A stretch of DNA of 64,000 bases, taken from assembly GCA_964556185.1 (NCBI GenBank), contig CAZKVI010000003.1, positions 2,089 to 66,088 on the forward strand. The letters are read 5' to 3'. A program made the translations under genes and the position numbers. The notes beneath the pieces are model-generated. The model was not told where the DNA came from. It worked only from the letters and a program-made list of their open reading frames with translations, and did no database searches. Below, piece after piece: positions 3,742 through 59,083 of the stretch. The DNA comes from an uncultured Methanosarcinales archaeon (GTDB taxonomy: Archaea > Nanobdellota > Nanobdellia > Woesearchaeales > DSVV01). The number at the start of each line of letters is the position of its first letter. Position 1 is the stretch's first letter.

Positions 3742-6700
3742 CTAAACCTTCTCACAACTTATCAAAACTTCCATCTTTTTAATCTTCTCTTTAGAACAAT
3801 CTTGTAATGTGTCTGCTTCAACACCAACAAAGATCTCAACAGCCCCACATTTGTCTTTAATATCATCTTGCCATTTGATTAACATATCAACATATGATTG
3901 AGTACTCTGCAAATGCAATTTAATATTATCTTTTTTCTCCAATCCTAACTTTTTCCTAAATGCTTGAACTCTTCGCATGACTTCTCTGGAATAACCTTCT
4001 GCATCTAAGTCAGGAGTTCTTGTTTTATCTAAAAACAATTGTCCATGTCTATATTCTGCTTCAACTAAGTTCTCAGGCAGTTCTTTCTCAATAATAAAGT
4101 GCTCTTTTTTCAAACTTACTTTATGTCCATCTAAAACAACAGTATGTGCACCTTTTTCAACATCTGCCAAGATTTTCTCGTCAGCAACTTGTATTAATCT
4201 AGTAATTATTTTAGGAACTAATTCACCATATTCTTGACCAATTGTTCTATGGTTTGGTTTCATTTTTATCTTAACTTCAGTACACTTATCAACTAATTCA
4301 ATATGTTTGACATTTGTTTGTTTTTTAATAGTTTCATCTAACTTAGTAATAGATTCAATAGTATCATTATCAGTAACTACAATCCTAATTTTACCAACAG
4401 GCCATCTTACTCCTAGTTGTGCTCTTTCACGAGCAGCTAAAATACTTTGAATTGTATCTTTTGCAATAGAAAACTCTTTTTCTAAAGAGTTATCAATAAA
4501 CTTTGCATCAAATTTAGGCCAATCAAACAAATGAATACTCTCAACCTCAAGATCAAAGTACTCTTTCAAATCTTGATACATTCTCTCAGCTATAAATGGA
4601 GAAACAATTGCAAACATTTTCAAATTCTCTAAAAATGTTTCAAATATAACATTAAATACAACTTGTTTTTGTTCTTCCAACCCAAGAGCTGCTTTCTCAC
4701 GAACCAATTGAATATATGTTCTTGATAATTCCATAAATATTTCTTCAACTTTCAAAGGAACTTCATTTATCTTATAACTATCCATTAATTCTGTTATTTC
4801 TTTAATACCAGAATGTAATTTTGAAATCATATACTCTTCTTCTTGTTCTAAACAATTCTTATCAATTCCAGTGAATTTCAAACCATTATTCTTAGCTAAA
4901 TCAATTATAAACTTGTGCAGATTCCAATACACACCTAAATTCTTATATTTTAATTTACAGTCATCAAAATTATAATTAATATCAATTCCAGGATTAGCTC
5001 CACCAATCATATAATATCTTAATGTGTCTGCTCCGTATTTATCAACAACTTCTTGAGGTAAAATATAATTACCAAGAGATTTACTCATCTTACGTCCCTG
5101 TGAATCTTGTACAAAACCATGCATGTAAACATTTCTAAAAGAAGGTTTTTCCATGCTTACCATAGAAGCAACATGTAATAAATTAAACCAACCTCTAATT
5201 TGATCTTTTCCTTCTAAAATAAAATCAGGTGGAAACAAATTCTTAAAATTCTCTTCTTTATGTGGATAATCCAAACAAATCCATGAAGTACAACCAGCAT
5301 CTACCCAAACATCTAAAATATCTGGAATTCTTTTTTTAACACCACCACAATCACATTTGATTGTTACTTCATCAATCCAAGGTTTATGTAATTTCTCTAC
5401 TTTTTGTCCTGATAACTTTTCTAATTCAGCAACATCACCGACGACAATATAATTATCACACTCTTCACATCTCCATACTGGTACTGGTGTTCCCCAGAAT
5501 CTTTGTTTTGTAATAGAATTGTCTCTTAAGTTTTCTAACCATGAATTAAAAGCATTATAAGCAGCTTGAGGTACCCATTTAATTTTATTATTCTCTTCAA
5601 TTAACTTTTCTTTCATATCATCTACTTTAAAGAACCATTGTTTTGTAGTTTTATAGACAACAGCTTCATGACATCTCCAACAATGTGCATAACTATGATT
5701 AGTTTTACTTTGTGCAATTAAAGTGCCATTCTCATCCATTAGTTCAACAAATTTCTTATCATCTTTCTTAGCAACTAAACCAGAGAACTTTGAATCATCC
5801 TTTGGATATGTGCCATTTTCATCAATAAGATTAAATGGTTTAATACCTTTTCTTACACATAATTCATAATCAGAATCCCCGCAACCAGGTGCAAAATGCA
5901 CTAAACCAGTACCATCATCTAAATGTACATATTCATCTGATAATAAAACTGTATAAATCTTATCTTGTGTTTTTCTTGCTTCTTTAATTTGAGGAAATGA
6001 ATTTTCAAAAGAAGGAATATATTCTTTGCCTTCTAATTTCTTTCCTTTGAATTCTTCAACAATTTCATAATCTTTTCCTGCTTTTAATTTAATAACTTCT
6101 TCTGCAAGGTCTTTTGCAACAATCCAATGTTCATCACCAACTTTACATTTAACATATTCAAAATCAGGATGTACAACAACTGCTAGATTAAAAGGAATTG
6201 TCCATGGAGTTGTTGTCCAAATGATTAAATAATCATTTTCAGTTCCTCTTAATTTAAATCTTAAATAAATAGAATCATCAGTAATATCTTGGTATTCTAA
6301 TTCATGCTTTGCTAATGCTGTTGCACACGAAGCACACCAAGTCATTGCTCTTTCTCCTTCATACAATCTTTTATTTTCATGTGCTTTTTTAATTAACCAC
6401 CATTCTCCTTCAATAAATTCTTTTGAAATAGGTTGGTAAGCATTTTCAAAGCCCATCCATACACCTAATCTAGTAAAATCCTTATTCATTACATGCATAT
6501 TTTCTATAGATAGTTTTTTACATTCTTCAATAAACTTAGCAACACCAAACTTCTTGATTCCTTCTTTTCCATTAATTCCTAGTTTCTTTTCAACTGCATG
6601 CGCTGTAGGTAATCCATGCATATCATAGCCAGCTCTATCCCAAACATTGAAACCAGCCATTCTTTTATATCTAAGAACCATATCTTTTAGTGATTTGTTC

Positions 6701-7452: not shown

Positions 7453-8769
7453 ACATAACATATGCTCTCTGAAGAAATTCATCTTCCGAGGGTATTTATT
7501 TATTTTTTCTATTGTTTTCTTATAATTATTTCTTAATTTAATAGCTTCTTTATTAGTCAATCCTGAAGAAACTTCATAAGTTAATCTAGGCTCCAATACA
7601 GTTCTTTGTTCTTCAATAATCTTAGTTATTTTGAATTTCTTTGGGTTTTTGTATACTTGAGAATCTTTTTGCAAACCAAATATTGAAACAGAGACTAAAT
7701 CAATATATTCATCATTATCTTTTAAGAATTGAATAGTTTCTAAGAATTCTTCTCTAGTTTCCCCTGGAAAACCAAACATTATGTAGACTACATTCTTTAT
7801 TCCTACTTCATGTGAATGTTTTAATACTTTTTCAACTTCTTCTTTGTTTGTTCCTTTGTTCATTAATTTCAAAACTCTATTATTTCCAGACTCAACACCC
7901 CAAATAACCATTGATAAACCAGATTCTTTTAATTTAACTAATGTTTCTTTGTTAATATCTTTTGGTTTTAATTGACAAGTGTAATTAACTTTTAATGGTT
8001 TTAAAACATTAGCTATTTCTAATAATCTTTTCTCATGTATCATGTCATCAATTAAAAAGAAATGTTTTTGTTTTGATTTCTTAATTGTTTGTTTTATTAA
8101 TTCTAAATTATATTCACAATAAGGTTGATTTGTAAAATGTGTACAAAAAGTACATCCTTTATAATAACAAGTTGATGATGTTTTAATTGGAATAACTGGT
8201 TCTGGACAAAAATACTCTTTTAGATTGTAAATAGAAAAATCAGGAACAATTTCACAGTTTAATTCATCATGTTTCACTTCTTCACCAATATATTTCAATA
8301 ATTCAACTTCATTATTCAAACACTTGGCCAGAGATTTTAATTTATCATTAACAGCAGGCCCACCAATTACAACATTCTTTAATTCTTTCAATAAAGCATA
8401 TGCATAAAATGCTTGACTTGAATAAACTAAACTAAATAAAACCAAATCAGGTTTCTTTTCTTGAATTTTCTTTAACATTTCTTCAAACAATTCTGGTTTT
8501 TCACCATTTACAACTGCTCTATTATTTTTCAGATATAATTTTGAAGTTATTTTGTTAAATTCTGTTGTTGTTTTTTCATAATCATCAAATTTACCTTCTT
8601 GGTAGTATTTATGATACTCTGGAAATTTCTTTTTATGAAATTCTAAATTCAAATCTAATACATCAATATTATGCTTTGAATTAGCCTTTAGAAATGAAGC
8701 TAAATAAGTCAATGAATAAGGAGGACTCGCAGGAGTACAAAACGGTAAATATACTAGTAATATGTTCAT
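7444..8769 (-). CDS. B12-binding domain radical SAM protein
   Basis: N-terminal MNILLVYLPF...PPYSLTYLASFL (B12-binding fold typical of class B radical SAM). Cys cluster CYYKGCTFC. Confidence 0.6.
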   Translation of the reverse strand: MNILLVYLPFCTPASPPYSLTYLASFLKANSKHNIDVLDLNLEFHKKKFPEYHKYYQEGKFDDYEKTTTEFNKITSKLYLKNNRAVVNGEKPELFEEMLKKIQEKKPDLVLFSLVYSSQAFYAYALLKELKNVVIGGPAVNDKLKSLAKCLNNEVELLKYIGEEVKHDELNCEIVPDFSIYNLKEYFCPEPVIPIKTSSTCYYKGCTFCTHFTNQPYCEYNLELIKQTIKKSKQKHFFLIDDMIHEKRLLEIANVLKPLKVNYTCQLKPKDINKETLVKLKESGLSMVIWGVESGNNRVLKLMNKGTNKEEVEKVLKHSHEVGIKNVVYIMFGFPGETREEFLETIQFLKDNDEYIDLVSVSIFGLQKDSQVYKNPKKFKITKIIEEQRTVLEPRLTYEVSSGLTNKEAIKLRNNYKKTIEKINKYPRKMNFFREHMLCSI

Positions 8770-29232: not shown

Positions 29233-29236
29233 TTTA

Positions 29237-29356
29237 CGGGCCCACGGGGATTCGAACCCCGGGCCTATGGCTGTCTGTGCGTAAGCAAAGACCCAGTGGA
29301 TCTTTGATCCTAACGCGTAAGAGGCCACCGCTCTAACCAGGCTGAGCTATGAGCCC
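29237..29356 (-). tRNA. tRNA-Lys(CUU) with about 45-nt intron after position 37
   Basis: Manual fold: GGGCTCA/TGGGCCC acceptor, GCTC/GAGC D-stem, GTGGC/GCCAT anticodon stem, loop CU-CUU-A, T-arm CGGGG-TTCGAAT-CCCCG, discriminator G. Confidence 0.7.
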
Positions 29357-29443
29357 ATAAAGGGCTTGACTGACCAAAGGGAAGGAAACCCTTCTTGCGT
29401 GTCGACCGAGCGTAACCAGTCGCCACGGGTGAGATTGAGCCCA
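29357..29443 (-). ncRNA. GC-rich structured segment immediately 5' of tRNA-Lys; also begins GGGCUCA; identity unknown
   Basis: Local GC above 50% with stems (AAGGG...CCCTT). No T-arm, so not called as a tRNA. Confidence 0.2.
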
Positions 29444-29485: not shown

Positions 29486-30367
29486 TTATCCTTGATAAAA
29501 ACCAATTAACTGTCTTTGTCTCTTAACATGTCTTAATTTTCTTAAGGCTTTTACTTCGATTTGTCTTATTCTTTCTCTTGTTAAATCAAATACTTGACCA
29601 ATCTCTTCAAGAGAATAATGACGAGGATGATCAATTCCATATCTCATTTTCATAACTTTTTCTTCTCTGGGTGTTAATTCAGCAAGTACACTTCTAACAG
29701 CCTTTGCTAAATCAGAATCCCCTACATTTTCATCAGGTCTTCGAACACTAGCTCCTTCTATAAAATCACCTATGGTTGCATCTGATTCATCACCAACTTT
29801 TTGCTCTAATGATAATGGTTCTCTTGCAAGCCTATAAATATCTTCAATTTTTTCAACTGGTTCACCTAACCAATCTGCAATTTCTTCAGAAGTTGGTTCT
29901 CTACCAAGATCAGTAACAAGTTTTCGAGCCGTTCTTCTAACTTTAGTAACCATTTCTAATTTATAAATTGGAATTCTTATTGTTCTTACTGTAGCTTCTA
30001 TTCCTCTAATAACACTTTGTCTAATCCACCAAGAAGCATATGTAGAAAATTTATATCCTCTTCTATATTCAAATTTTTCAACAGCTCTTATTAAACCTAA
30101 ATTACCTTCTTGAATTAAATCACCAAGTGGCAAGCCTCTATATTGGTATTGTCTTGCAATACTAACAACTAGTCTTAAATTGCCTTTTATTAAATCTTCT
30201 TTAGCTGTAGCTGCTTCATAAGGAGTGCCTTCTTCCATTGTTGTAGCTAATCTAACTTCATCATCTCTAGATAATAATGCTACAGCCCCCATTTGATTCA
30301 TATACTTCCTTAGAACTCTAGGATCATCTCTATATCTTGGCCCACCTTGATAATGACTAACACCCAT
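29486..30367 (-). CDS. bacterial-type RNA polymerase sigma-70 family factor (regions 1.2, 2, 3, 4)
   Basis: Region 1.2 [28 protein letters not shown]. Region 2 [58 protein letters not shown]. Region 4 [15 protein letters not shown]...[29 protein letters not shown]. Confidence 0.8.
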
Positions 30368-43302: not shown

Positions 43303-44100
43303 CTATTTTGAACCACTTTTAATCCCTCTCAAAATCTTTGTTTCTAATTTCTTATACAATTTCTTGTATTTTCTAAGAAATCTCTTTTTATCACTTATTA
43401 TGTTCTCTTTTATTTCTTTGTATGCATTCTTTCCGAACAATTTATCAATTTCCTTGTCAACTTTATCTTTACTTATCTTATTTTTATTTAAAAACAATGA
43501 AATAGAAACAACATTCCTTAACATTTCATATTTTTCATTACCATTTAACATATTAAAGTTTTCAATTAATAATTTGCTTTTTAATAAGTGCAAATCTAAT
43601 ATTTTATAATTAATTTTATGTTTTGTTTTATAGATAAATCTTTTTCTAGTAATACATTTACTTAACATTGTTTGATACAATGGATCTGTATTCAAACCAT
43701 TAATTAAGGCTTTATTATTTATTAGAATTATGTGCGGTTTAATACCTAATTTATTTTCTAATTCTTCTTCAAGATATTTCTCATCAATTTGATCATCCAT
43801 AATAACTAATACATCAATATCATTAAAATGAAACCCTTTTTCTAAAAATGAACCTGTTATGATTAGGTTATCATAAGTTTTGAATATTTTATCTATATTC
43901 TCAAATATTTGGCTGATTATATTAACTTTTACAGGCTCTAAGAAGTCAATATTATAGAAAAATGGTTTCTCAATAGGTCTTTCTAACTCTTGTAATGGTT
44001 TTATGGTTACATGACTACCTACTTCAAACCCAAGCCTTCTTTTTGGGATGTATATTTGATCCATCCTACTTCCTTTACTAATCTTACTTATTAGTTTCAT
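43303..44100 (-). CDS. AbrB/MazE-like N-terminal domain fused to a minimal nucleotidyltransferase domain
   Basis: SKGSRMDQIYIPKRR...EVGSHVTI (swapped-hairpin-like), then ITGSFLEKGFHFNDIDVLVI (GS...D.D). Confidence 0.45.
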   Translation of the reverse strand: MKLISKISKGSRMDQIYIPKRRLGFEVGSHVTIKPLQELERPIEKPFFYNIDFLEPVKVNIISQIFENIDKIFKTYDNLIITGSFLEKGFHFNDIDVLVIMDDQIDEKYLEEELENKLGIKPHIILINNKALINGLNTDPLYQTMLSKCITRKRFIYKTKHKINYKILDLHLLKSKLLIENFNMLNGNEKYEMLRNVVSISLFLNKNKISKDKVDKEIDKLFGKNAYKEIKENIISDKKRFLRKYKKLYKKLETKILRGIKSGSK

Positions 44101-45766: not shown

Positions 45767-46648
45767 ATGAACAAATCAATTATAATCTCATTAATACTTA
45801 TACTTGTCTTAATCACATCAGTTTATGCATTAGAAGGTTCTAGAACTGAATTAGAAAAAGCATCTGCTCAAGAATATGGCTATGCAAGAGGATATGACCA
45901 AGCTTCTGATGGAATGTCAAAAGATCCAAATTGGGTTAGCAAATATACAAATAGATTAAGTAGTATTGCAAGACACTATGTAATTGATGTAACTGAAGAA
46001 GAAATTGAAGCATATCAATCAGCAAAAGGTACATATTTGTTAGCATATAAACAAGGCTATGATGATTATAAACAAGGAGAACCTGAACCACAAACTAAAA
46101 AAGTTGAAAAAGTTGAAAGATATGGAACAGTTACAGAAGAAATAACAGAATCACCTTTAACAAATATAGATTGGGATAAATCTACAGAAGAACTTGGTTA
46201 TGAATTCGGTGTTTATGATGCACAACAAGGCAATGCAAAATCTCCTTATACAATTTTGAATAAACTTAGTTGGGATACTTCTTTGAAAATAAAAGCACGA
46301 AGAATAGTTAATGAAAAAGTAGACTTTATCAAAGCATACAAAAAAGGATATGAAGCATCTGATTCTGTTGAAATAGTAAGACAACAAGACAAAGGCATGG
46401 CTGAAAAAGGAGAATCTGAAATAATTGGCTGGGCACTAGGTTATTCTCATGCAATTAATGGCCAAGAACAAGACTCAGGAGTTATTTATGATTACACATA
46501 CCTTAGCAGGCTTCCTAAGGATCTATTTGACAAAAGTGTACATCATATGTTACCACGTAGATTAAAAATCAGTCCTAATGAAAGACATTGGTTTGAACAA
46601 GGCTATAACAATGGCTATGCAGATGGTTTGCTGAAGTTAGAAGAATGA
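45767..46648 (+). CDS. secreted acidic protein with six GY-containing repeats
   Basis: Signal peptide; repeats YGYARGYDQASDG / AYKQGYDDYKQGE / LGYEFGVYDAQQGN / AYKKGYEASDS / LGYSHAINGQEQD / FEQGYNNGYADG. Confidence 0.5.
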   Translation: MNKSIIISLILILVLITSVYALEGSRTELEKASAQEYGYARGYDQASDGMSKDPNWVSKYTNRLSSIARHYVIDVTEEEIEAYQSAKGTYLLAYKQGYDDYKQGEPEPQTKKVEKVERYGTVTEEITESPLTNIDWDKSTEELGYEFGVYDAQQGNAKSPYTILNKLSWDTSLKIKARRIVNEKVDFIKAYKKGYEASDSVEIVRQQDKGMAEKGESEIIGWALGYSHAINGQEQDSGVIYDYTYLSRLPKDLFDKSVHHMLPRRLKISPNERHWFEQGYNNGYADGLLKLEE

Positions 46649-46755
46649 TGGTAATTATATAACATTAAATATTGTTTATCACAACATCTGATGTTAAACT
46701 AAAGTTCTCTAAAATTAACAGATTGTTAATAACAAAGAACAAGTGAAAAACTTCT

Positions 46756-47571
46756 CTACTTAAAGTCATGTTCTTTGTATTTCTTAAGAAGTCCTAAAAT
46801 TTCCTTATCTTTAATATCTTTCAATTTTAAAATAATATTATTTATATCATCGCCTTCTTCACTATTGTCTTCTTTTCTAAAACTTATTGAAATTTTATCA
46901 TCTTGCCAAATAAAATATCTCAATATCTCAATATCTTTATCATTAGAGTTGTCCTCTAGCCATTTTCCAAGCTTTTTCTTTAATTTAAATAAATCTTCAT
47001 CATATTTTGGTGTTTTAGTATAAAGTGCTCTAGCGAAACCCTCTAATCCAATAATACTATTAAGTTTTTTCTTTGTTTTTCTTGAATAATATTCATAGTC
47101 TGTTCTACTAATTGGTTTTTCCTCAATAATCCTTTTAATTATTTGTTTTTCTTTTTTTGTGAAAATTTGAGATAGCCACATCTGTAGATTTCTCTCTGCA
47201 TAGATTTTTTGCTTGTCAATTATTAATTCAGATTTTTTTAATCTAGCTAATTGCAATTCAAACTCTTGTTTAAATTCATCATAATCAAGATTTCCTTTAT
47301 TACTAAACTCAGGCAATTGTTTATCAATATTATTCTCTTCAAATATTATTCTTGTAAAAGCTAATATTTGGCTAAAAATCTTTTTTTTAGGTGTTTTTTG
47401 ATATAATTCTTCAATATCTAAGTCATACTTATAAATTAGAAATGGAATAGCTTTCAAATATCTTATATTCTCAGTCTTCAAAATAGATAAAATTAGTTTT
47501 TCTTTGCTTTTATCTGCACCAAGCATCCTGTAGCCTGCATCAGTAAGCTTTTTCTCTATTGCTGTTGCCAT
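46756..47571 (-). CDS. hypothetical protein, second gene of the cassette operon
   Basis: Overlaps the upstream nucleotidyltransferase gene by 16 nt. No recognised domain. Confidence 0.4.
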   Translation of the reverse strand: MATAIEKKLTDAGYRMLGADKSKEKLILSILKTENIRYLKAIPFLIYKYDLDIEELYQKTPKKKIFSQILAFTRIIFEENNIDKQLPEFSNKGNLDYDEFKQEFELQLARLKKSELIIDKQKIYAERNLQMWLSQIFTKKEKQIIKRIIEEKPISRTDYEYYSRKTKKKLNSIIGLEGFARALYTKTPKYDEDLFKLKKKLGKWLEDNSNDKDIEILRYFIWQDDKISISFRKEDNSEEGDDINNIILKLKDIKDKEILGLLKKYKEHDFK

Positions 47572-48176
47572 TTTTTAACCTCATTTATTATTTCTTTATT
47601 TTCCATATTCCATTCTTTAAATTTTATTTCAATTAGATCTAATAATTTTTGTTTATAATTTGCAACAATAGATGTTTGCATAGTTTCTTTATATCTACTA
47701 ACAAGTTCTTTAAGATCTATTTTCTCTTTTTCAAAAATTCTTTTTACATCATCAAAGTCTCTAGAATCACCTCTTGCTAATTTACTTATTATAACATCAT
47801 ACAAAGATAATGTATAAAGTTCAATCTTACCAAATGATTGAATATGTTTGGATTTTTCTAAACAATCTGGAAGTAAATCAGTTCCTAAAATATATGAACT
47901 ATGAAAGACATCAAAAGCCAAACCTTCTTGTGTAATCCAGCGAATATGTCCTGTTTTCTCAAATCCAATCTGTTCAAATATCTTACAGATATATTTGTAT
48001 TCTTTATCTGAGTGGATATTAATATCTATGTCTAATGTTGATTGTTTGATATTAAGTATTGTTAATGCTGTTCCACCTAATGCATACATCTTAGTTTTCT
48101 TTTCAATAAATTTTGATAGGGATTCAAGTAATTCAAAGAGTTCATTAGCATTAATTTCTTTTTTATTGTGAGGCAT
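47556..48176 (-). CDS. AbiEii/DUF1814-like nucleotidyltransferase (putative toxin/abortive-infection component)
   Basis: YALGGTALTILNIKQSTLDIDINI matches the GGTAL...S.DIDf nucleotidyltransferase motif. Confidence 0.45.
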   Translation of the reverse strand: MPHNKKEINANELFELLESLSKFIEKKTKMYALGGTALTILNIKQSTLDIDINIHSDKEYKYICKIFEQIGFEKTGHIRWITQEGLAFDVFHSSYILGTDLLPDCLEKSKHIQSFGKIELYTLSLYDVIISKLARGDSRDFDDVKRIFEKEKIDLKELVSRYKETMQTSIVANYKQKLLDLIEIKFKEWNMENKEIINEVKKWQQQ

Positions 48177-48544
48177 ATTACTAATAAAACAGCTTTAGTA
48201 TATAAATCTTCCTATTTTTGTACGTATATATACAATTATTGTATAAAAAACTCACAAAGAAGGCTATAACAATGACTATGCAGATGGATTGTTGAAGTTG
48301 GAAGAATGAATATAAACAAAGAAAACTAGCAAATAATGTAGTGGTTAACTTTTTAATAAATTACTATTTAATATGTAAAATGTAGTGGTTATATATTTCT
48401 CTAAATTAGGTGTCTACATTTATGGTGTTTTGTAGTCACCCATATATTGATTATTTATTTCTAACTAGTTCAATTAATTTCATTCTTACTTTGGTTCAAA
48501 TTAAGACCAAAAAAGTTCTTCTTAAGATTTGAGTATGGATTGTA

Positions 48545-48600
48545 AGAAAAAAACGCCACGACCCGGACTTTCAAACCACAGGTTTGAACCTTTTGGTTTT
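48545..48600 (-). repeat. degenerate partial duplicate of the tRNA-Ser 3' end with an internal hairpin insertion
   Basis: tatcccggttcaaa...tccgggtcgtggcg versus the tRNA 3' end tatcccggttcaaatccgggccacagcg. No valid cloverleaf. Confidence 0.5.
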
Positions 48601-48649
48601 TGAACCGGGATACAATATGAGCTTTGCTCATATGTACAAAAAATTAAAA

Positions 48650-48763
48650 CGCTGTGGCCCGGATTTGAACCGGGATATCCCGGAGGAAACAAGCTAAACA
48701 GTGCATGCCTTGAAAATACATACATTTCCAGGCTTGCGCAGTACCAGGTTGTGCCACCACAGC
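48650..48763 (-). tRNA. tRNA-Ser(GGA) with about 30-nt anticodon-loop intron and long variable arm
   Basis: Acceptor GCTGTGG/CCACAGC, anticodon stem CAAGC/GCTTG, loop CU-GGA-A, T-arm CCCGG-TTCAAAT-CCGGG, discriminator G. Confidence 0.55.
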
Positions 48764-48772
48764 AAAAAAAGG

Positions 48773-48897
48773 TGGCAGTGGCGGGATCTGAACCCGCGGC
48801 TTCTAGATCGCCCAGATATAAAGTTTAATCATCGGCATGAGCCTCATCACTCAAATCTTATGAGTCTAGCACTCTAACCAGGCTGAGTTACACTGCC
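48773..48897 (-). tRNA. tRNA-Met/Ile2(CAU), elongator type, with 50-nt intron
   Basis: Acceptor GGCAGTG/CACTGCC, D-stem ACTC/GAGT, anticodon stem CTAGA/TCTAG, loop CU-CAU-AA, T-arm GCGGG-TTCAGAT-CCCGC. Intron contains GUGAUGA. Confidence 0.7.
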
Positions 48898-50122: not shown

Positions 50123-50269
50123 CGAAGTTAGAAGTTCAACAAGAACTTCTCATTATTACCCATATACTGGATAATAACCTTCATATCAATATTAATGCCA
50201 TAGGTTATATATAAACCTTTCGGTTATGTAGTTACTTTAGAGGAGTTAATATATAAAAGAAAGTATATA

Positions 50270-50341
50270 TGGACTCACCGAGATTTGAACTCGGAGTCTC
50301 CCCGAAGCCAACGGGGTGCGATACCATTTCGCCATAAGCCC
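50270..50341 (-). tRNA. tRNA-Ala(GGC), no intron
   Basis: GGGCTTA acceptor with the G3:U70 Ala identity pair; D-stem GCGA/TCGC; anticodon stem CCCCG/CGGGG; loop UU-GGC-UU; T-arm CCGAG-TTCAAAT-CTCGG. Confidence 0.8.
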
Positions 50342-50508
50342 ATACAATGCTAGCTACATATATGCTTATATATAATTTACGCTAATTTCTCACTATATGT
50401 AGTACTTGTACACATTACATAACTTTCTAATAAAGCAATCCTAATATACAAATCATAACCTTTTTATATCACCTTAGTCATACTTTGACTTAACACGGGG
50501 GTGTTTAA

Positions 50509-51340: not shown

Positions 51341-51583
51341 TTACTGTAAATCTTTATGATATAAAGCAATAATATAAATGACTCTTTTTTCAATCCTATA
51401 TGATAATCTAAATGGAGGAATATACAACTCTCTTGTCCCTTTTCTATTATACATCATAGGTTTGCCAATCTCAGGATTATCTTTTATTTTAGAAATTTGT
51501 TTGATGATTTTCTGTTTAAGGGCATTATTCTTAATCTTACTAAATTCCTTCTTAAATAAAGAATCAAAAATAACTTCTACCAC
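51341..51583 (-). CDS. relE: RelE/ParE-family toxin
   Basis: 80 aa; NRKGTRELYIPPFRLSYRIEKRVIYIIALYH. 7-nt overlap with the upstream antitoxin gene. Confidence 0.7.
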   Translation of the reverse strand: MVEVIFDSLFKKEFSKIKNNALKQKIIKQISKIKDNPEIGKPMMYNRKGTRELYIPPFRLSYRIEKRVIYIIALYHKDLQ

Positions 51584-51843
51584 TTTTTCATTTCCTCAAG
51601 AAAATCATCAAATTCCATTTTAATGCCTTTACCTTCTTCAATTCTCTTCCAAGCTTGTTCTGTTCTTTTTGCAAATTCTAGATCTTCTTTTAGATTTTTC
51701 TCTAATTCTGTAGCTTTCTTCATAATTAATTGATGGTCATTCTTAATAATGATTAATTTATCTCCTTCATGAAGATCTCCTCTCATTTCATTAGGAATTA
51801 CAACTTGGCCTTTTGAACTCATTCGTGTTATAGCAACATCCAT
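51577..51843 (-). CDS. AbrB/MazE/SpoVT-type antitoxin
   Basis: MSSKGQVVIPNEMRGDLHEGDKLII. Confidence 0.7.
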   Translation of the reverse strand: MDVAITRMSSKGQVVIPNEMRGDLHEGDKLIIIKNDHQLIMKKATELEKNLKEDLEFAKRTEQAWKRIEEGKGIKMEFDDFLEEMKKW

Positions 51844-58715: not shown

Positions 58716-58772
58716 GTCACAATACAAACATTTTTAAATATTCTAAATTTCATTTGAAAAAGACCAGATATT

Positions 58773-58938
58773 TGTGGGGGTAGCCCGTAAGAAGATTCTT
58801 TGGGTTCCCTAGAGCAAAGTCTGGTCAAATGCGCAGGACTTAAGATACACTGAAGACAGCCTTCACGGCAAAGTCTTTGTTTTGAATTAGACATCCTGTC
58901 ACTTAGTGTGTTCGGGGGTTCGAATCCCCTCCCCCACA
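58773..58938 (+). tRNA. tRNA-Leu(UAA)-like gene with two introns (about 29 nt near the D-arm and about 48 nt in the anticodon loop)
   Basis: Acceptor GTGGGGG/CCCCCAC. AGTCTGGTCAAATGCGCAGGACTTAAGA matches the archaeal Leu D-loop and anticodon arm; TCCTG is found 48 nt on; long variable arm; T-arm GGGGG-TTCGAAT-CCCCT; discriminator A. 166 nt = about 87 mature + 78 intron. Confidence 0.5.
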
Positions 58939-59036: not shown

Positions 59037-59058
59037 GTGGGGATCATCCTCCCCCACA
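59037..59058 (+). repeat. degenerate duplicate of the tRNA-Leu 3' end (ggtggggATCATcctcccccaca), separated from the tRNA by two strong hairpins (58968..58995, 59015..59032)
   Basis: Compare the tRNA 3' end gggggTTCGAATcccctcccccaca. Hairpins GTACTGCTTTGC-AAA-GCAAATGCAGTAC and TTTTTACG-AA-CGTAAAAA. Confidence 0.55.
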
Positions 59059-59083
59059 TTTTCTTTTTGATTTTGATTAAGAA

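Follow-up and report, generated by a model that had tools for sequence, protein, structure and literature searches.

How introns at non-canonical positions of archaeal tRNA genes are gained and lost is still unresolved; it has been proposed that introns transpose, that mobile elements integrate and that att sites are protected (PMC4090602, PMC3239211, PMC3293823). The tRNA genes of DPANN archaea are known to be heavily disrupted (PMC5829648). In the DPANN archaeon ARMAN-2, introns between nucleotides 59 and 60 have been documented in pre-tRNA-Cys(GCA) and pre-tRNA-Pro(GGG), with strict or relaxed bulge-helix-bulge (BHB) motifs that are cleaved in vitro (Fujishima et al. 2011, PMC3239211). Here, we analyzed a 64,000-nt stretch of contig CAZKVI010000003.1 (hereafter, the window), in which a working tRNA-Ser(GGA) gene (48763-48650, minus strand) is followed, 38 nt beyond its 3' end, by a second, partial tRNA-Ser 3' end that is interrupted by a 31-nt insert (48612-48547, minus strand; hereafter, the relic). 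Comparison with a sister genome indicates that the relic is very probably the displaced ancestral, intron-bearing 3' end of this same gene. The relic is a small fossil of archaeal tRNA intron loss and no new kind of element.

The ARMAN-2 introns resemble the insert of the relic in their insertion point, their short length, the strict or relaxed BHB motif formed on the T-stem and their occurrence in the same superphylum. However, they interrupt working genes, whereas the window copy lies in an orphan 3' fragment; moreover, ARMAN-2 belongs to the Micrarchaeota, whereas the window lineage is Woesearchaeota/Nanoarchaeota-like and we infer splicing in it from sequence. The closest precedent is the heterogeneity of tRNA-Thr(GGU) in a Caldiarchaeum subterraneum population, for which the proposed explanation was that tRNA-like att sequences, some with an intron and some without, had recombined (Sugahara et al. 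2012, PMC3293823). In both cases, close genomes differ in whether a non-canonical intron is present and the working gene has a partial tRNA copy beside it as a direct repeat, but the window case is the mirror image of the earlier one. In Caldiarchaeum, the partial copy is a 5' fragment at a distance of 1.8 kb, the two copies are separated by an element that encodes a recombinase, and the change was read as an intron gain; in the window, it is a 3' fragment close behind the gene, there is no recombinase, and the intron sits in the relic, which amounts to a net loss.

Integrative elements of the SSV and pNOB8 types leave partial tRNA repeats (attL/attR) in archaea (PMC3293823, PMC4090602). These share with the window a directly repeated tRNA 3' end, a gene rebuilt with incoming sequence and a displaced old end. 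Unlike them, the window has 37 bp between the repeats and no integrase, its repeat runs for 14 bp before an intron follows, and the acceptor strands of the two 3' ends differ at four of seven positions, with the 5' acceptor strand differing too. Finally, large-scale transposition and turnover of tRNA introns have been described in the Thermoproteales (Fujishima et al. 2010, as cited in PMC4090602). Judged by that citation, the common ground is a fast, lineage-specific turnover of non-canonical introns among close relatives and a short hairpin (21 nt, 95% identity) found both in a D-loop insert of a related tRNA-Met and in the spacer of a tRNA-Leu relic in the window; the window differs from the cited case in showing a loss with a physical scar, not spread, and in that no multi-copy intron family was detected.

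Organization of the tRNA-Ser locus

The window is a segment of archaeal chromosome with approximately 31% G+C that encodes EF-2, EF-1alpha, L1, L10, IleRS, an Rpb7-like subunit and TFE. Its host was placed in DPANN because the TFE homologues, where named in their sources, come from Woesearchaeota, Nanoarchaeota or Nanobdellota. The working tRNA-Ser(GGA) gene is recognized by Rfam (41.1 bits) and, with introns allowed, by ARAGORN, as Ser(gga) with a 30-nt intron. It has the acceptor stem GCTGTGG/CCACAGC, a discriminator G and the T-loop TTCAAAT, which is free of introns. The canonical 37/38 intron (48725-48696, minus strand; 30 nt, ARAGORN i(40,30)) is identical at 29/30 positions to that of the sister genome described below. 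The 3' end of the gene is made of two 14-nt parts. The first, TATCCCGGTTCAAA (copy x1, 48677-48664, minus strand), comprises the end of the variable region, the 5' strand of the T-stem and T-loop nucleotides 54 to 59; the second, TCCGGGCCACAGCG (y', 48663-48650, minus strand), is intron-less and supplies T60, the 3' strand of the T-stem, CCACAGC and the discriminator G.

A 37-nt spacer follows on the same strand (48649-48613), composed of a TTTTAATTTTTT run and an imperfect hairpin, tacatatGAGCaaaGCTCatattgta, which reaches 2 nt into the next repeat and is present in the minimum free energy (MFE) fold. The relic then starts with a second copy of TATCCCGGTTCAAA (x2, 48612-48599, minus strand), an exact direct repeat of x1 (14/14), continues with the 31-nt insert AACCAAAAGGTTCAAACCTGTGGTTTGAAAG (48598-48568, minus strand) and with the 3' exon end TCCGGGTCGTGGCG (y, 48567-48554, minus strand), and closes with a run of seven T residues (T7; 48553-48547, minus strand), the ancestral tRNA-Ser terminator. 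In full, it reads tatcccggttcaaa, 31 nt, tccgggtcgtggcg and T7. Part y holds T60, the T-stem 3' strand CCGGG, the acceptor 3' strand TCGTGGC and a discriminator G; it shares TCCGGG with y' (6/6), while the two acceptor strands are unlike at 4/7 positions, all of them transitions. Inside the insert lies an 8-bp complementary pair, TTCAAACC/GGTTTGAA, and the fold of the relic region is more stable than expected from shuffled sequences (z = -4.1; 0/200 shuffles equally stable). No third tRNA was called at 48545-48612 by ARAGORN in default mode or with introns, or by Rfam at the gathering threshold or at E <= 10; only tRNA-Ser and tRNA-Met are called here by ARAGORN with introns and by Rfam. The initial annotation had described a partial tRNA-Ser 3' end just downstream of the gene, split by an insert with its own stem and not folding as a tRNA, and all three observations were borne out.

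Taken by itself, the 14-mer gives a BLAST E value of 0.02. The match is not a product of chance, since the block, over its full 69 nt, shares 91% identity with the genuine 3' end that the orthologous tRNA-Ser has in two related assemblies (L024 and L057). The arrangement is also real and no assembly artifact, because two further assemblies, made from other samples, show it: one (L001, JGI) is identical, and the other (L002, ENA) carries one single-nucleotide polymorphism, in the spacer hairpin.

Comparison with a sister genome

A metagenome scan with TFE led to a sister genome (L024; TFE 96% identical in amino acids) that is collinear with the window, with flanking genes at 87-94% nucleotide identity and about 91% overall. 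It holds one tRNA-Ser(GGA) gene only, and the sole 3' end of this gene is the same sequence as the relic. The gene reads GCCAGCG, canonical intron, GATATCCCGGTTCAAA, then the insert aatcaaaaggttcaaacctttggtttgaaag, then TCCGGGCGCTGGCG and T7; in other words, TATCCCGGTTCAAA runs straight into the intron aatcaaaaggttcaaacctttggtttgaaag, and TCCGGGCGCTGGCG completes an acceptor stem, GCCAGCG/CGCTGGC, that pairs perfectly. An independent ENA assembly (L057) carries an allele identical to the L024 type. In both, x is joined directly to the intron, y' is missing and the same T7 follows the functional gene. When the window was aligned with L024, one clean gap of 65 bp appeared in L024, exactly between the two x copies: y' forms the first part of the insertion, the spacer has no counterpart, and x2 is orthologous to L024 7735-7748. 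Counted between the repeats, the exact 14-bp repeat (48664-48677 and 48599-48612) bounds 51 bp missing from L024.

As judged from these alignments, the relic is orthologous to a functional intron-bearing 3' end from which the working gene is now separated by a 65-bp insertion, and we consider the identification of 48612-48547 as the displaced ancestral 3' end of tRNA-Ser(GGA) highly probable. The label of duplicate given in the initial annotation is therefore reversed by the related genomes: the copy is the original 3' end, and what was inserted is the current 3' end together with the 37-nt spacer.

The relic is orphaned. It has no 5' half, and its identity to L024 (91%) is that of the local background, compared with 98% for the tRNA body; hence, it is most likely a non-functional fossil, at most transcribed by read-through and then discarded. 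A functional role could nevertheless be imagined, with the relic acting as the 3' piece of a split tRNA or as an alternative 3' exon reached by read-through, which would yield a second, G-U-rich tRNA-Ser isoform whose mature form would end ...UCGUGGCG-CCA. The relic has kept an intact T-stem, a BHB-competent intron, the discriminator G and the T7 terminator, and split tRNAs are known in Nanoarchaeota (PMC3239211, PMC3218864). In addition, the working 5' strand GCUGUGG can pair with the relic strand UCGUGGC through four G-U pairs, and an in silico chimera of the window tRNA-Ser body and the spliced relic is called Ser(gga) by ARAGORN. However, this wobble fit is the automatic result of four compensatory transition pairs (C-G to U-A, A-U to G-C) and no sign of function. 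A strong T-run, TTTTAATTTTTT, stands ahead of the relic, no split is known at this position, and GCCACGA, the perfect 5' partner of the relic acceptor strand TCGTGGC, is absent from the 64-kb window. The split-tRNA form of the idea was disfavored on this absence and because the L024 orthologue is one contiguous gene; a function of either kind is very unlikely. The value of the relic is evolutionary and for annotation, not mechanistic, and its function is probably nil.

The insert as a T-loop intron

The insert differs from the L024/L057 intron at two positions (29/31 identical). With the insert in place, the tRNA-Ser of L024 receives no ARAGORN call; its removal in silico leaves a 7-nt T-loop, TTCAAAT, and a canonical cloverleaf that ARAGORN calls Ser(gga). 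The insert was assigned between nucleotides 59 and 60 because its removal restores this T-loop. On sequence grounds, it is an archaeal BHB intron at position 59/60, a site whose geometry is the T-arm equivalent of the canonical 37/38 site, and it would be excised in this lineage as well. In the window, it belongs to no complete tRNA gene, as there is no 5' half and no call; in L024 and L057, it lies, by sequence, in a complete gene that would be expressed.

In the predicted fold, the T-stem serves as the outer helix and the central 4-bp helix is formed by U54-A57 (UUCA) with a UGAA near the 3' end of the intron. The 5' bulge consists of A58-A59 and the first intron nucleotide (AAA), and the 3' bulge of A-G-U60 (AG|U), after which the inner helix follows. 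For the relic, the constrained BHB fold has a free energy of -17.5 kcal/mol, 1.5 above the MFE of -19.0. Neither of the two positions at which the relic and the L024 intron differ conflicts with the fold. At one of them, a C-G pair of the inner helix h' becomes U-G; the second falls within the intron's inner part and touches neither the central H helix nor the bulges.

Inserts at 59/60 of the T-loop were also found in tRNA-Ala of L024 and of a more distant relative (L030) and in tRNA-Leu of L063. The Ser intron and both Ala introns end GAAAG|T, giving the bulge A-G-U60. With this ending, the 4-bp U54-A57/UGAA helix forms as well in Ser and in L030 Ala, and in the latter the MFE structure is itself the strict hBHBh' structure. 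L024 Ala pairs just 3 bp (UUC/GAA) and fits the relaxed motif only, as does the L063 Leu insert, which ends GCATG|T and fits less well.

The initial annotation had viewed the insert as an inverted-repeat insertion into a duplicate. Read literally, part of the 3' end would have been duplicated on the spot and subsequently interrupted by an element resembling a miniature inverted-repeat transposable element (MITE). The 8-bp inverted repeat and the flanks matching the tRNA speak for such an origin. Against it, the same insert occupies the sole tRNA-Ser 3' end of L024 and L057, where splicing is needed for a working gene, and no further copy was found in the window, in approximately 200 kb of related loci or in IMG/VR; the insert is the 59/60 intron of a functional sister gene, and the MITE origin is scarcely credible. 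In an all-versus-all comparison of introns and spacers, the only non-orthologous match was the one between the tRNA-Leu spacer and the D-loop insert of L023 tRNA-Met (21 nt), and no multi-copy intron family was detected.

The tRNA-Ala(GGC) gene upstream of TFE provides a parallel case. In L024 (4435-4552, plus strand), it carries a 46-nt T-loop intron at 59/60, and ARAGORN calls Ala(ggc) only once this is removed; in L030 (1771-1945, plus strand), it has three introns, in the D-loop, anticodon and T-loop. The window gene (50270-50341, minus strand) is intron-less, its T-stem has changed in a compensatory way (52-62 A-T versus G-C), and there is no relic at this locus. Since the 59/60 intron is present in L024 and in the distant L030 and missing in the window, the sequences suggest that the T-loop intron was also lost from tRNA-Ala in the window lineage.

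Displaced 3' ends at other genes

A second relic in the window follows a tRNA-Leu(UAA) gene (58774-58938, plus strand) that was read from the sequence with the help of an acceptor/T-arm scan and aligns with the tRNA-Leu of L058, L060, L061 and L063. No tool calls it, because it carries two introns, one in the D-arm (58785-58813) and one at the canonical site (58845-58892). Its relic, CCTCCCCCACATTTT (59048-59062, plus strand), starts 109 nt after the gene and repeats its last 11 nt and the TTTT trailer. The four relatives have no such duplication. The flank found right after tRNA-Leu in L058 and L061, and in similar form in L060, corresponds to the one that comes after the relic in the window, the L063 flank being too short for this comparison. 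Since the relic lies against the flank seen immediately behind the gene in relatives, the duplicated state is derived at tRNA-Leu and the relic marks the ancestral position. Moreover, the window allele (5' flank and D-arm intron) matches that of L062 (85% over 114 nt), while the gene next to it is nearer to L058-type strains (93%) than to L062 (78%), which argues for allele exchange at this locus.

The third case is the tRNA-Ser(UGA) of L030 (7483-7250, minus strand; TFE 70% identical), which has an intron-less T-loop and is followed by a 39-nt spacer and then by TCCCAGTTCA, 53 nt and AATCTGGGCGTTGGCGTTCATTCTT, a second 3' end with an interrupted T-loop. The acceptor strand and the 9-nt trailer of this second end are identical to those of the first. 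A simple tandem duplication was rejected, since beyond the discriminator the copies share just TTTT in the window and these 9 nt in L030. At the end of the L030 spacer, an inverted copy of the T-arm, AGATTTGAACTGG, was observed; hairpin-mediated template switching is suggested for this locus.

A similar layout is seen at a protein gene. A 53-bp copy of the 3' end of a 293-aa gene (48309-48257, minus strand) is 91% identical to the true end at 46596-46648, and the two repeats bracket an insert (46650-48246) with a DUF6036 nucleotidyltransferase (48176-47556) and a 271-aa gene (47571-46756), both missing in L024. A topology of new 3' end, short spacer and relic recurs, by sequence comparison, at tRNA-Leu, at L030 tRNA-Ser(UGA) and at a protein-gene 3' end. 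The earlier statement that the Ser copy is one of several 3'-end duplications holds for the tRNA-Leu relic, whereas the protein gene is analogous only.

Proposed replacement of the 3' end

Taking all parts together, we consider it likely that the relic is a displaced 3' end left behind by an allele replacement in which the intron was lost. In the proposed course of events, gene conversion or repair would have copied from a diverged, intron-less tRNA-Ser template, either the allele of another strain or a paralogous Ser isoacceptor. A donor of this type would carry GCTGTGG...CCACAGCG, followed by TTTTAATTTTTTGTACATATGAGCAAAGCTCATATTG. The left junction would fall within homologous sequence; the right junction would be non-homologous or rely on the 14-nt microhomology, since homology stops at the intron, and its resolution would duplicate x and strand the old 3' end. 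A 65-bp segment would thereby have come to lie within the 14-nt TATCCCGGTTCAAA, made of TCCGGGCCACAGCG, a foreign trailer of 37 nt that contains a hairpin, and the second 14-mer. The gene body would now be joined to an intron-free 3' end, with the old end left 38 nt downstream and the T-loop intron gone from the expressed gene.

The pattern of differences from L024 bears on this mechanism. The 5' acceptor strand (GCTGTGG versus GCCAGCG) and a 6-nt indel just upstream of it are altered along with the 3' end, while the remainder of the gene is near-identical. Likewise, the four differences between the relic and the working 3' strand are what one would expect of diverged alleles, namely four compensatory transition pairs. 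That the 5' acceptor strand and the 3' end changed together is one reason why we prefer recombination to an integrase. For recombinational replacement as such, we put the chances at about even. Other or unidentified mechanisms, for example template switching, are unlikely and would leave the identity of the relic valid; a duplication followed by a MITE, a functional relic and an artifact jointly account for very little.

The initial annotation had grouped the fragment with the att-site remnants of tRNA-targeting elements. In such a scenario, a virus or plasmid targeting tRNA-Ser would have recombined within TATCCCGGTTCAAA by means of a tyrosine recombinase, its attP bringing in an intron-less 3' part, and the element would later have shrunk to 37 bp, leaving the working gene as attL and the relic as attR. 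The attP sequence expected on the virus or plasmid would be TATCCCGGTTCAAATCCGGGCCACAGCG. The topology does fit, since a direct repeat, a foreign 3' end on the working gene and a displaced old end are what integration into a tRNA gene canonically produces, and this part of the proposal stands. The neighborhood is also rich in strain-specific inserts (the DUF6036 and 271-aa genes here, genes of 253 and 122 aa in L024), and recombination between att sites with and without an intron has its precedent in the Caldiarchaeum tRNA-Thr (PMC3293823). We prefer recombination, however, because the two repeats are 37 bp apart with no integrase fragment and no attP in IMG/VR, and because an intron interrupts the target T-arm, leaving 14 nt of identity on one side; such an intron should destroy the stem-loop core site. 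A Pfam scan of approximately 45 window open reading frames (ORFs) across the 64 kb revealed no integrase, recombinase or transposase, and IMG/VR gave 0 matches to either the new 3' end or the intron; the sampling of archaeal plasmids and of DPANN mobilomes is poor. Furthermore, the 5' acceptor strand would have needed four later compensatory substitutions in a gene otherwise approximately 98% identical to L024, and the same topology at tRNA-Leu comes with a replaced 5' flank, which 3' integration cannot yield. Accordingly, an att scar is rather unlikely.

Three further leads were examined and rejected. A 16-mer from the relic had 11 matches in IMG/VR, all in unrelated contexts. The spacer hairpin had one match (32/35 nt), at L065 1204-1238, inside an ORF for a 619-aa GDD-motif polymerase on a 2-kb RNA-virus-like contig, which was judged to be due to chance. 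A shared spacer hairpin family (GAGCAAAGCTC / GCAAAGC) was represented only by the Ser spacer and by sequence downstream of a gene in L063 and L064, which gives no evidence for a repeat family.

The polarity could also be reversed. The window type would then be ancestral, its partial copy would have gained a hairpin neutrally, and a deletion between the 14-mers would have produced the 59/60 intron of the L024 type. Deleting 65 bp between direct repeats of 14 bp is mechanistically easy, the direct and inverted motifs that make up the intron (GGTTCAAACC / GGTTTGAA) resemble the T-arm, which a local origin would predict, and the scheme would offer a route for the gain of non-canonical introns, a mechanism described as unknown (PMC4090602). 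On the other hand, a random insertion would have had to form a BHB with rightly placed bulges by chance, and the perfectly paired acceptor stem of L024 resembles that of the distant L030 tRNA-Ser (GCCAACG/CGTTGGC), which suggests a conserved state. The tRNA-Ala 59/60 intron, common to L024 and L030, is missing only in the window. We favor intron loss because the relic retains the ancestral T7 and because the duplicated state is clearly derived at tRNA-Leu; an intron gain seems improbable. The direction of the change (loss, not gain), the donor and the enzymology are all presumptive.

Several points weigh against replacement with intron loss. For the 65 bp, no donor was identified, and an exact 14-bp repeat bounding DNA at the T-arm is also what site-specific integration produces. 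The spacers are short in three independent cases (37, 39 and about 110 nt), which hints at a process more specific than random non-homologous junctions. At L030, the exact sharing of the acceptor strand and 9 nt of trailer fits better with a local origin than with a foreign donor. The BHB fold of the Ser intron is not the MFE structure, and splicing of a 59/60 intron in this lineage is presumed. Finally, the acceptor strand CGCTGGC of L024 is unlike the relic strand TCGTGGC at 3/7 positions, so L024 is not the direct ancestor and neither genome is the ancestor of the other; as the Ser locus is represented by a single sister lineage (L024/L057), its polarity rests on parsimony and on the analogy with tRNA-Leu and tRNA-Ala.

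Under replacement with intron loss, the window and the sister genome form a before-and-after pair for the loss of a T-loop intron. The intron was removed from the expressed gene by acquiring a new 3' end rather than by precise deletion, the intron-bearing exon remains as a scar, and scars of the same type occur at other tRNA genes of the clade. Introns have been suggested to shield tRNA genes from integration (PMC4090602), and the present case is relevant to that idea, as the intron-bearing 3' end was here bypassed rather than protected.

Separately, a 209-aa LAGLIDADG homing-endonuclease-like ORF was observed in L062 (1188-1817, plus strand; Pfam LAGLIDADG_3, E = 1.9e-13). It abuts and reads into a tRNA-Leu allele that has the D-arm intron and 5' flank of the window, and a segment of approximately 48 nt homologous to its 3' end is retained in the window at 58726-58774. 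From its sequence, it may be a free-standing endonuclease tied to a tRNA allele cassette. One could extend this to a scheme in which tRNA genes of the clade are cassettes exchanged horizontally under the drive of a free-standing LAGLIDADG endonuclease, with D-arm and T-loop BHB introns marking immunity or insertion sites and the relics at tRNA-Ser, tRNA-Leu and L030 tRNA-Ser(UGA) being scars left when breaks made by the endonuclease were repaired from a donor allele. By analogy, this would be an archaeal tRNA counterpart of 'collaborative homing'. There is no link to an endonuclease at the Ser locus itself, and the scheme is speculative, with a small chance of being right.

Detection of tRNA genes

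In default mode, ARAGORN called only tRNA-Ala in the whole window. With introns allowed, it called Lys (29236-29357), Ser (48649-48764), Met (48771-48897) and Ala (50269-50342), and Rfam at the gathering threshold called the same four. Across 20 related loci, Rfam at this threshold missed every multi-intron tRNA. Hidden tRNAs were found by reading alignments, by a custom acceptor/T-arm scan and by running ARAGORN on constructs spliced in silico. Half of the six tRNA genes examined in the window and L024 went undetected by both Rfam and ARAGORN (L024 Ser, L024 Ala and window Leu), and L024 tRNA-Met was not found by Rfam at the gathering threshold; all four carry T-loop, D-arm or long introns. 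Since genes of these kinds are missed by Rfam and ARAGORN, the tRNA complements of Woesearchaeota-like metagenome-assembled genomes are likely under-called, and orphan '3'-end duplicates' can be used as a flag for hidden intron-bearing tRNA genes.

Neighboring genes and minor observations

Upstream of tRNA-Ser lies tRNA-Met(CAU) (48897-48773, minus strand; Rfam RF00005, 54.6 bits, and ARAGORN with introns), with a canonical intron of approximately 50 nt. The gap between the two genes is 9 nt, and they are probably co-transcribed. The tRNA-Met exons are identical in the window and L024, while the introns differ by a 39-nt indel in pairwise alignment; the L024 intron (tRNA-Met at 7468-7633) is approximately 40 nt longer owing to extra hairpins. 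In L023 (TFE 86% identical), tRNA-Met has a D-loop insert (1681-1722) that has in common with the window tRNA-Leu spacer a 21-nt hairpin, ttttacgttcgtaaaagct (95%), in reverse orientation.

A HIT-family gene (49334-48915, minus strand) precedes tRNA-Met. A contig search with this adjacent HIT protein returned only distant bacterial and archaeal HIT genes and no syntenic match. In L024, two genes (253 aa and 122 aa) lie between HIT and tRNA-Met; their products are of low complexity and look secreted, and on this basis, judged from their sequences, they were rejected as recombinases. Right after the L024 tRNA-Ala, there is a hairpin-rich insertion of approximately 90 bp (4553-4650), flanked by (a/g)TATATAC repeats and absent from the window.

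The variable neighborhood of the tRNA cluster in the window also includes a MazE-like/ParE toxin-antitoxin pair (51341-51843, minus strand) and a nucleotidyltransferase-like gene with weak Pfam matches (Polbeta / NTP_transf_2; 43303-44100, minus strand). Further away, a 293-aa ORF (29486-30367, minus strand) contains all the bacterial sigma-70 regions (1.2, 2, 3 and 4; E = 1e-19 to 1e-21) in an otherwise archaeal context and adjoins an intron-containing tRNA-Lys(CUU) at 29237-29356.

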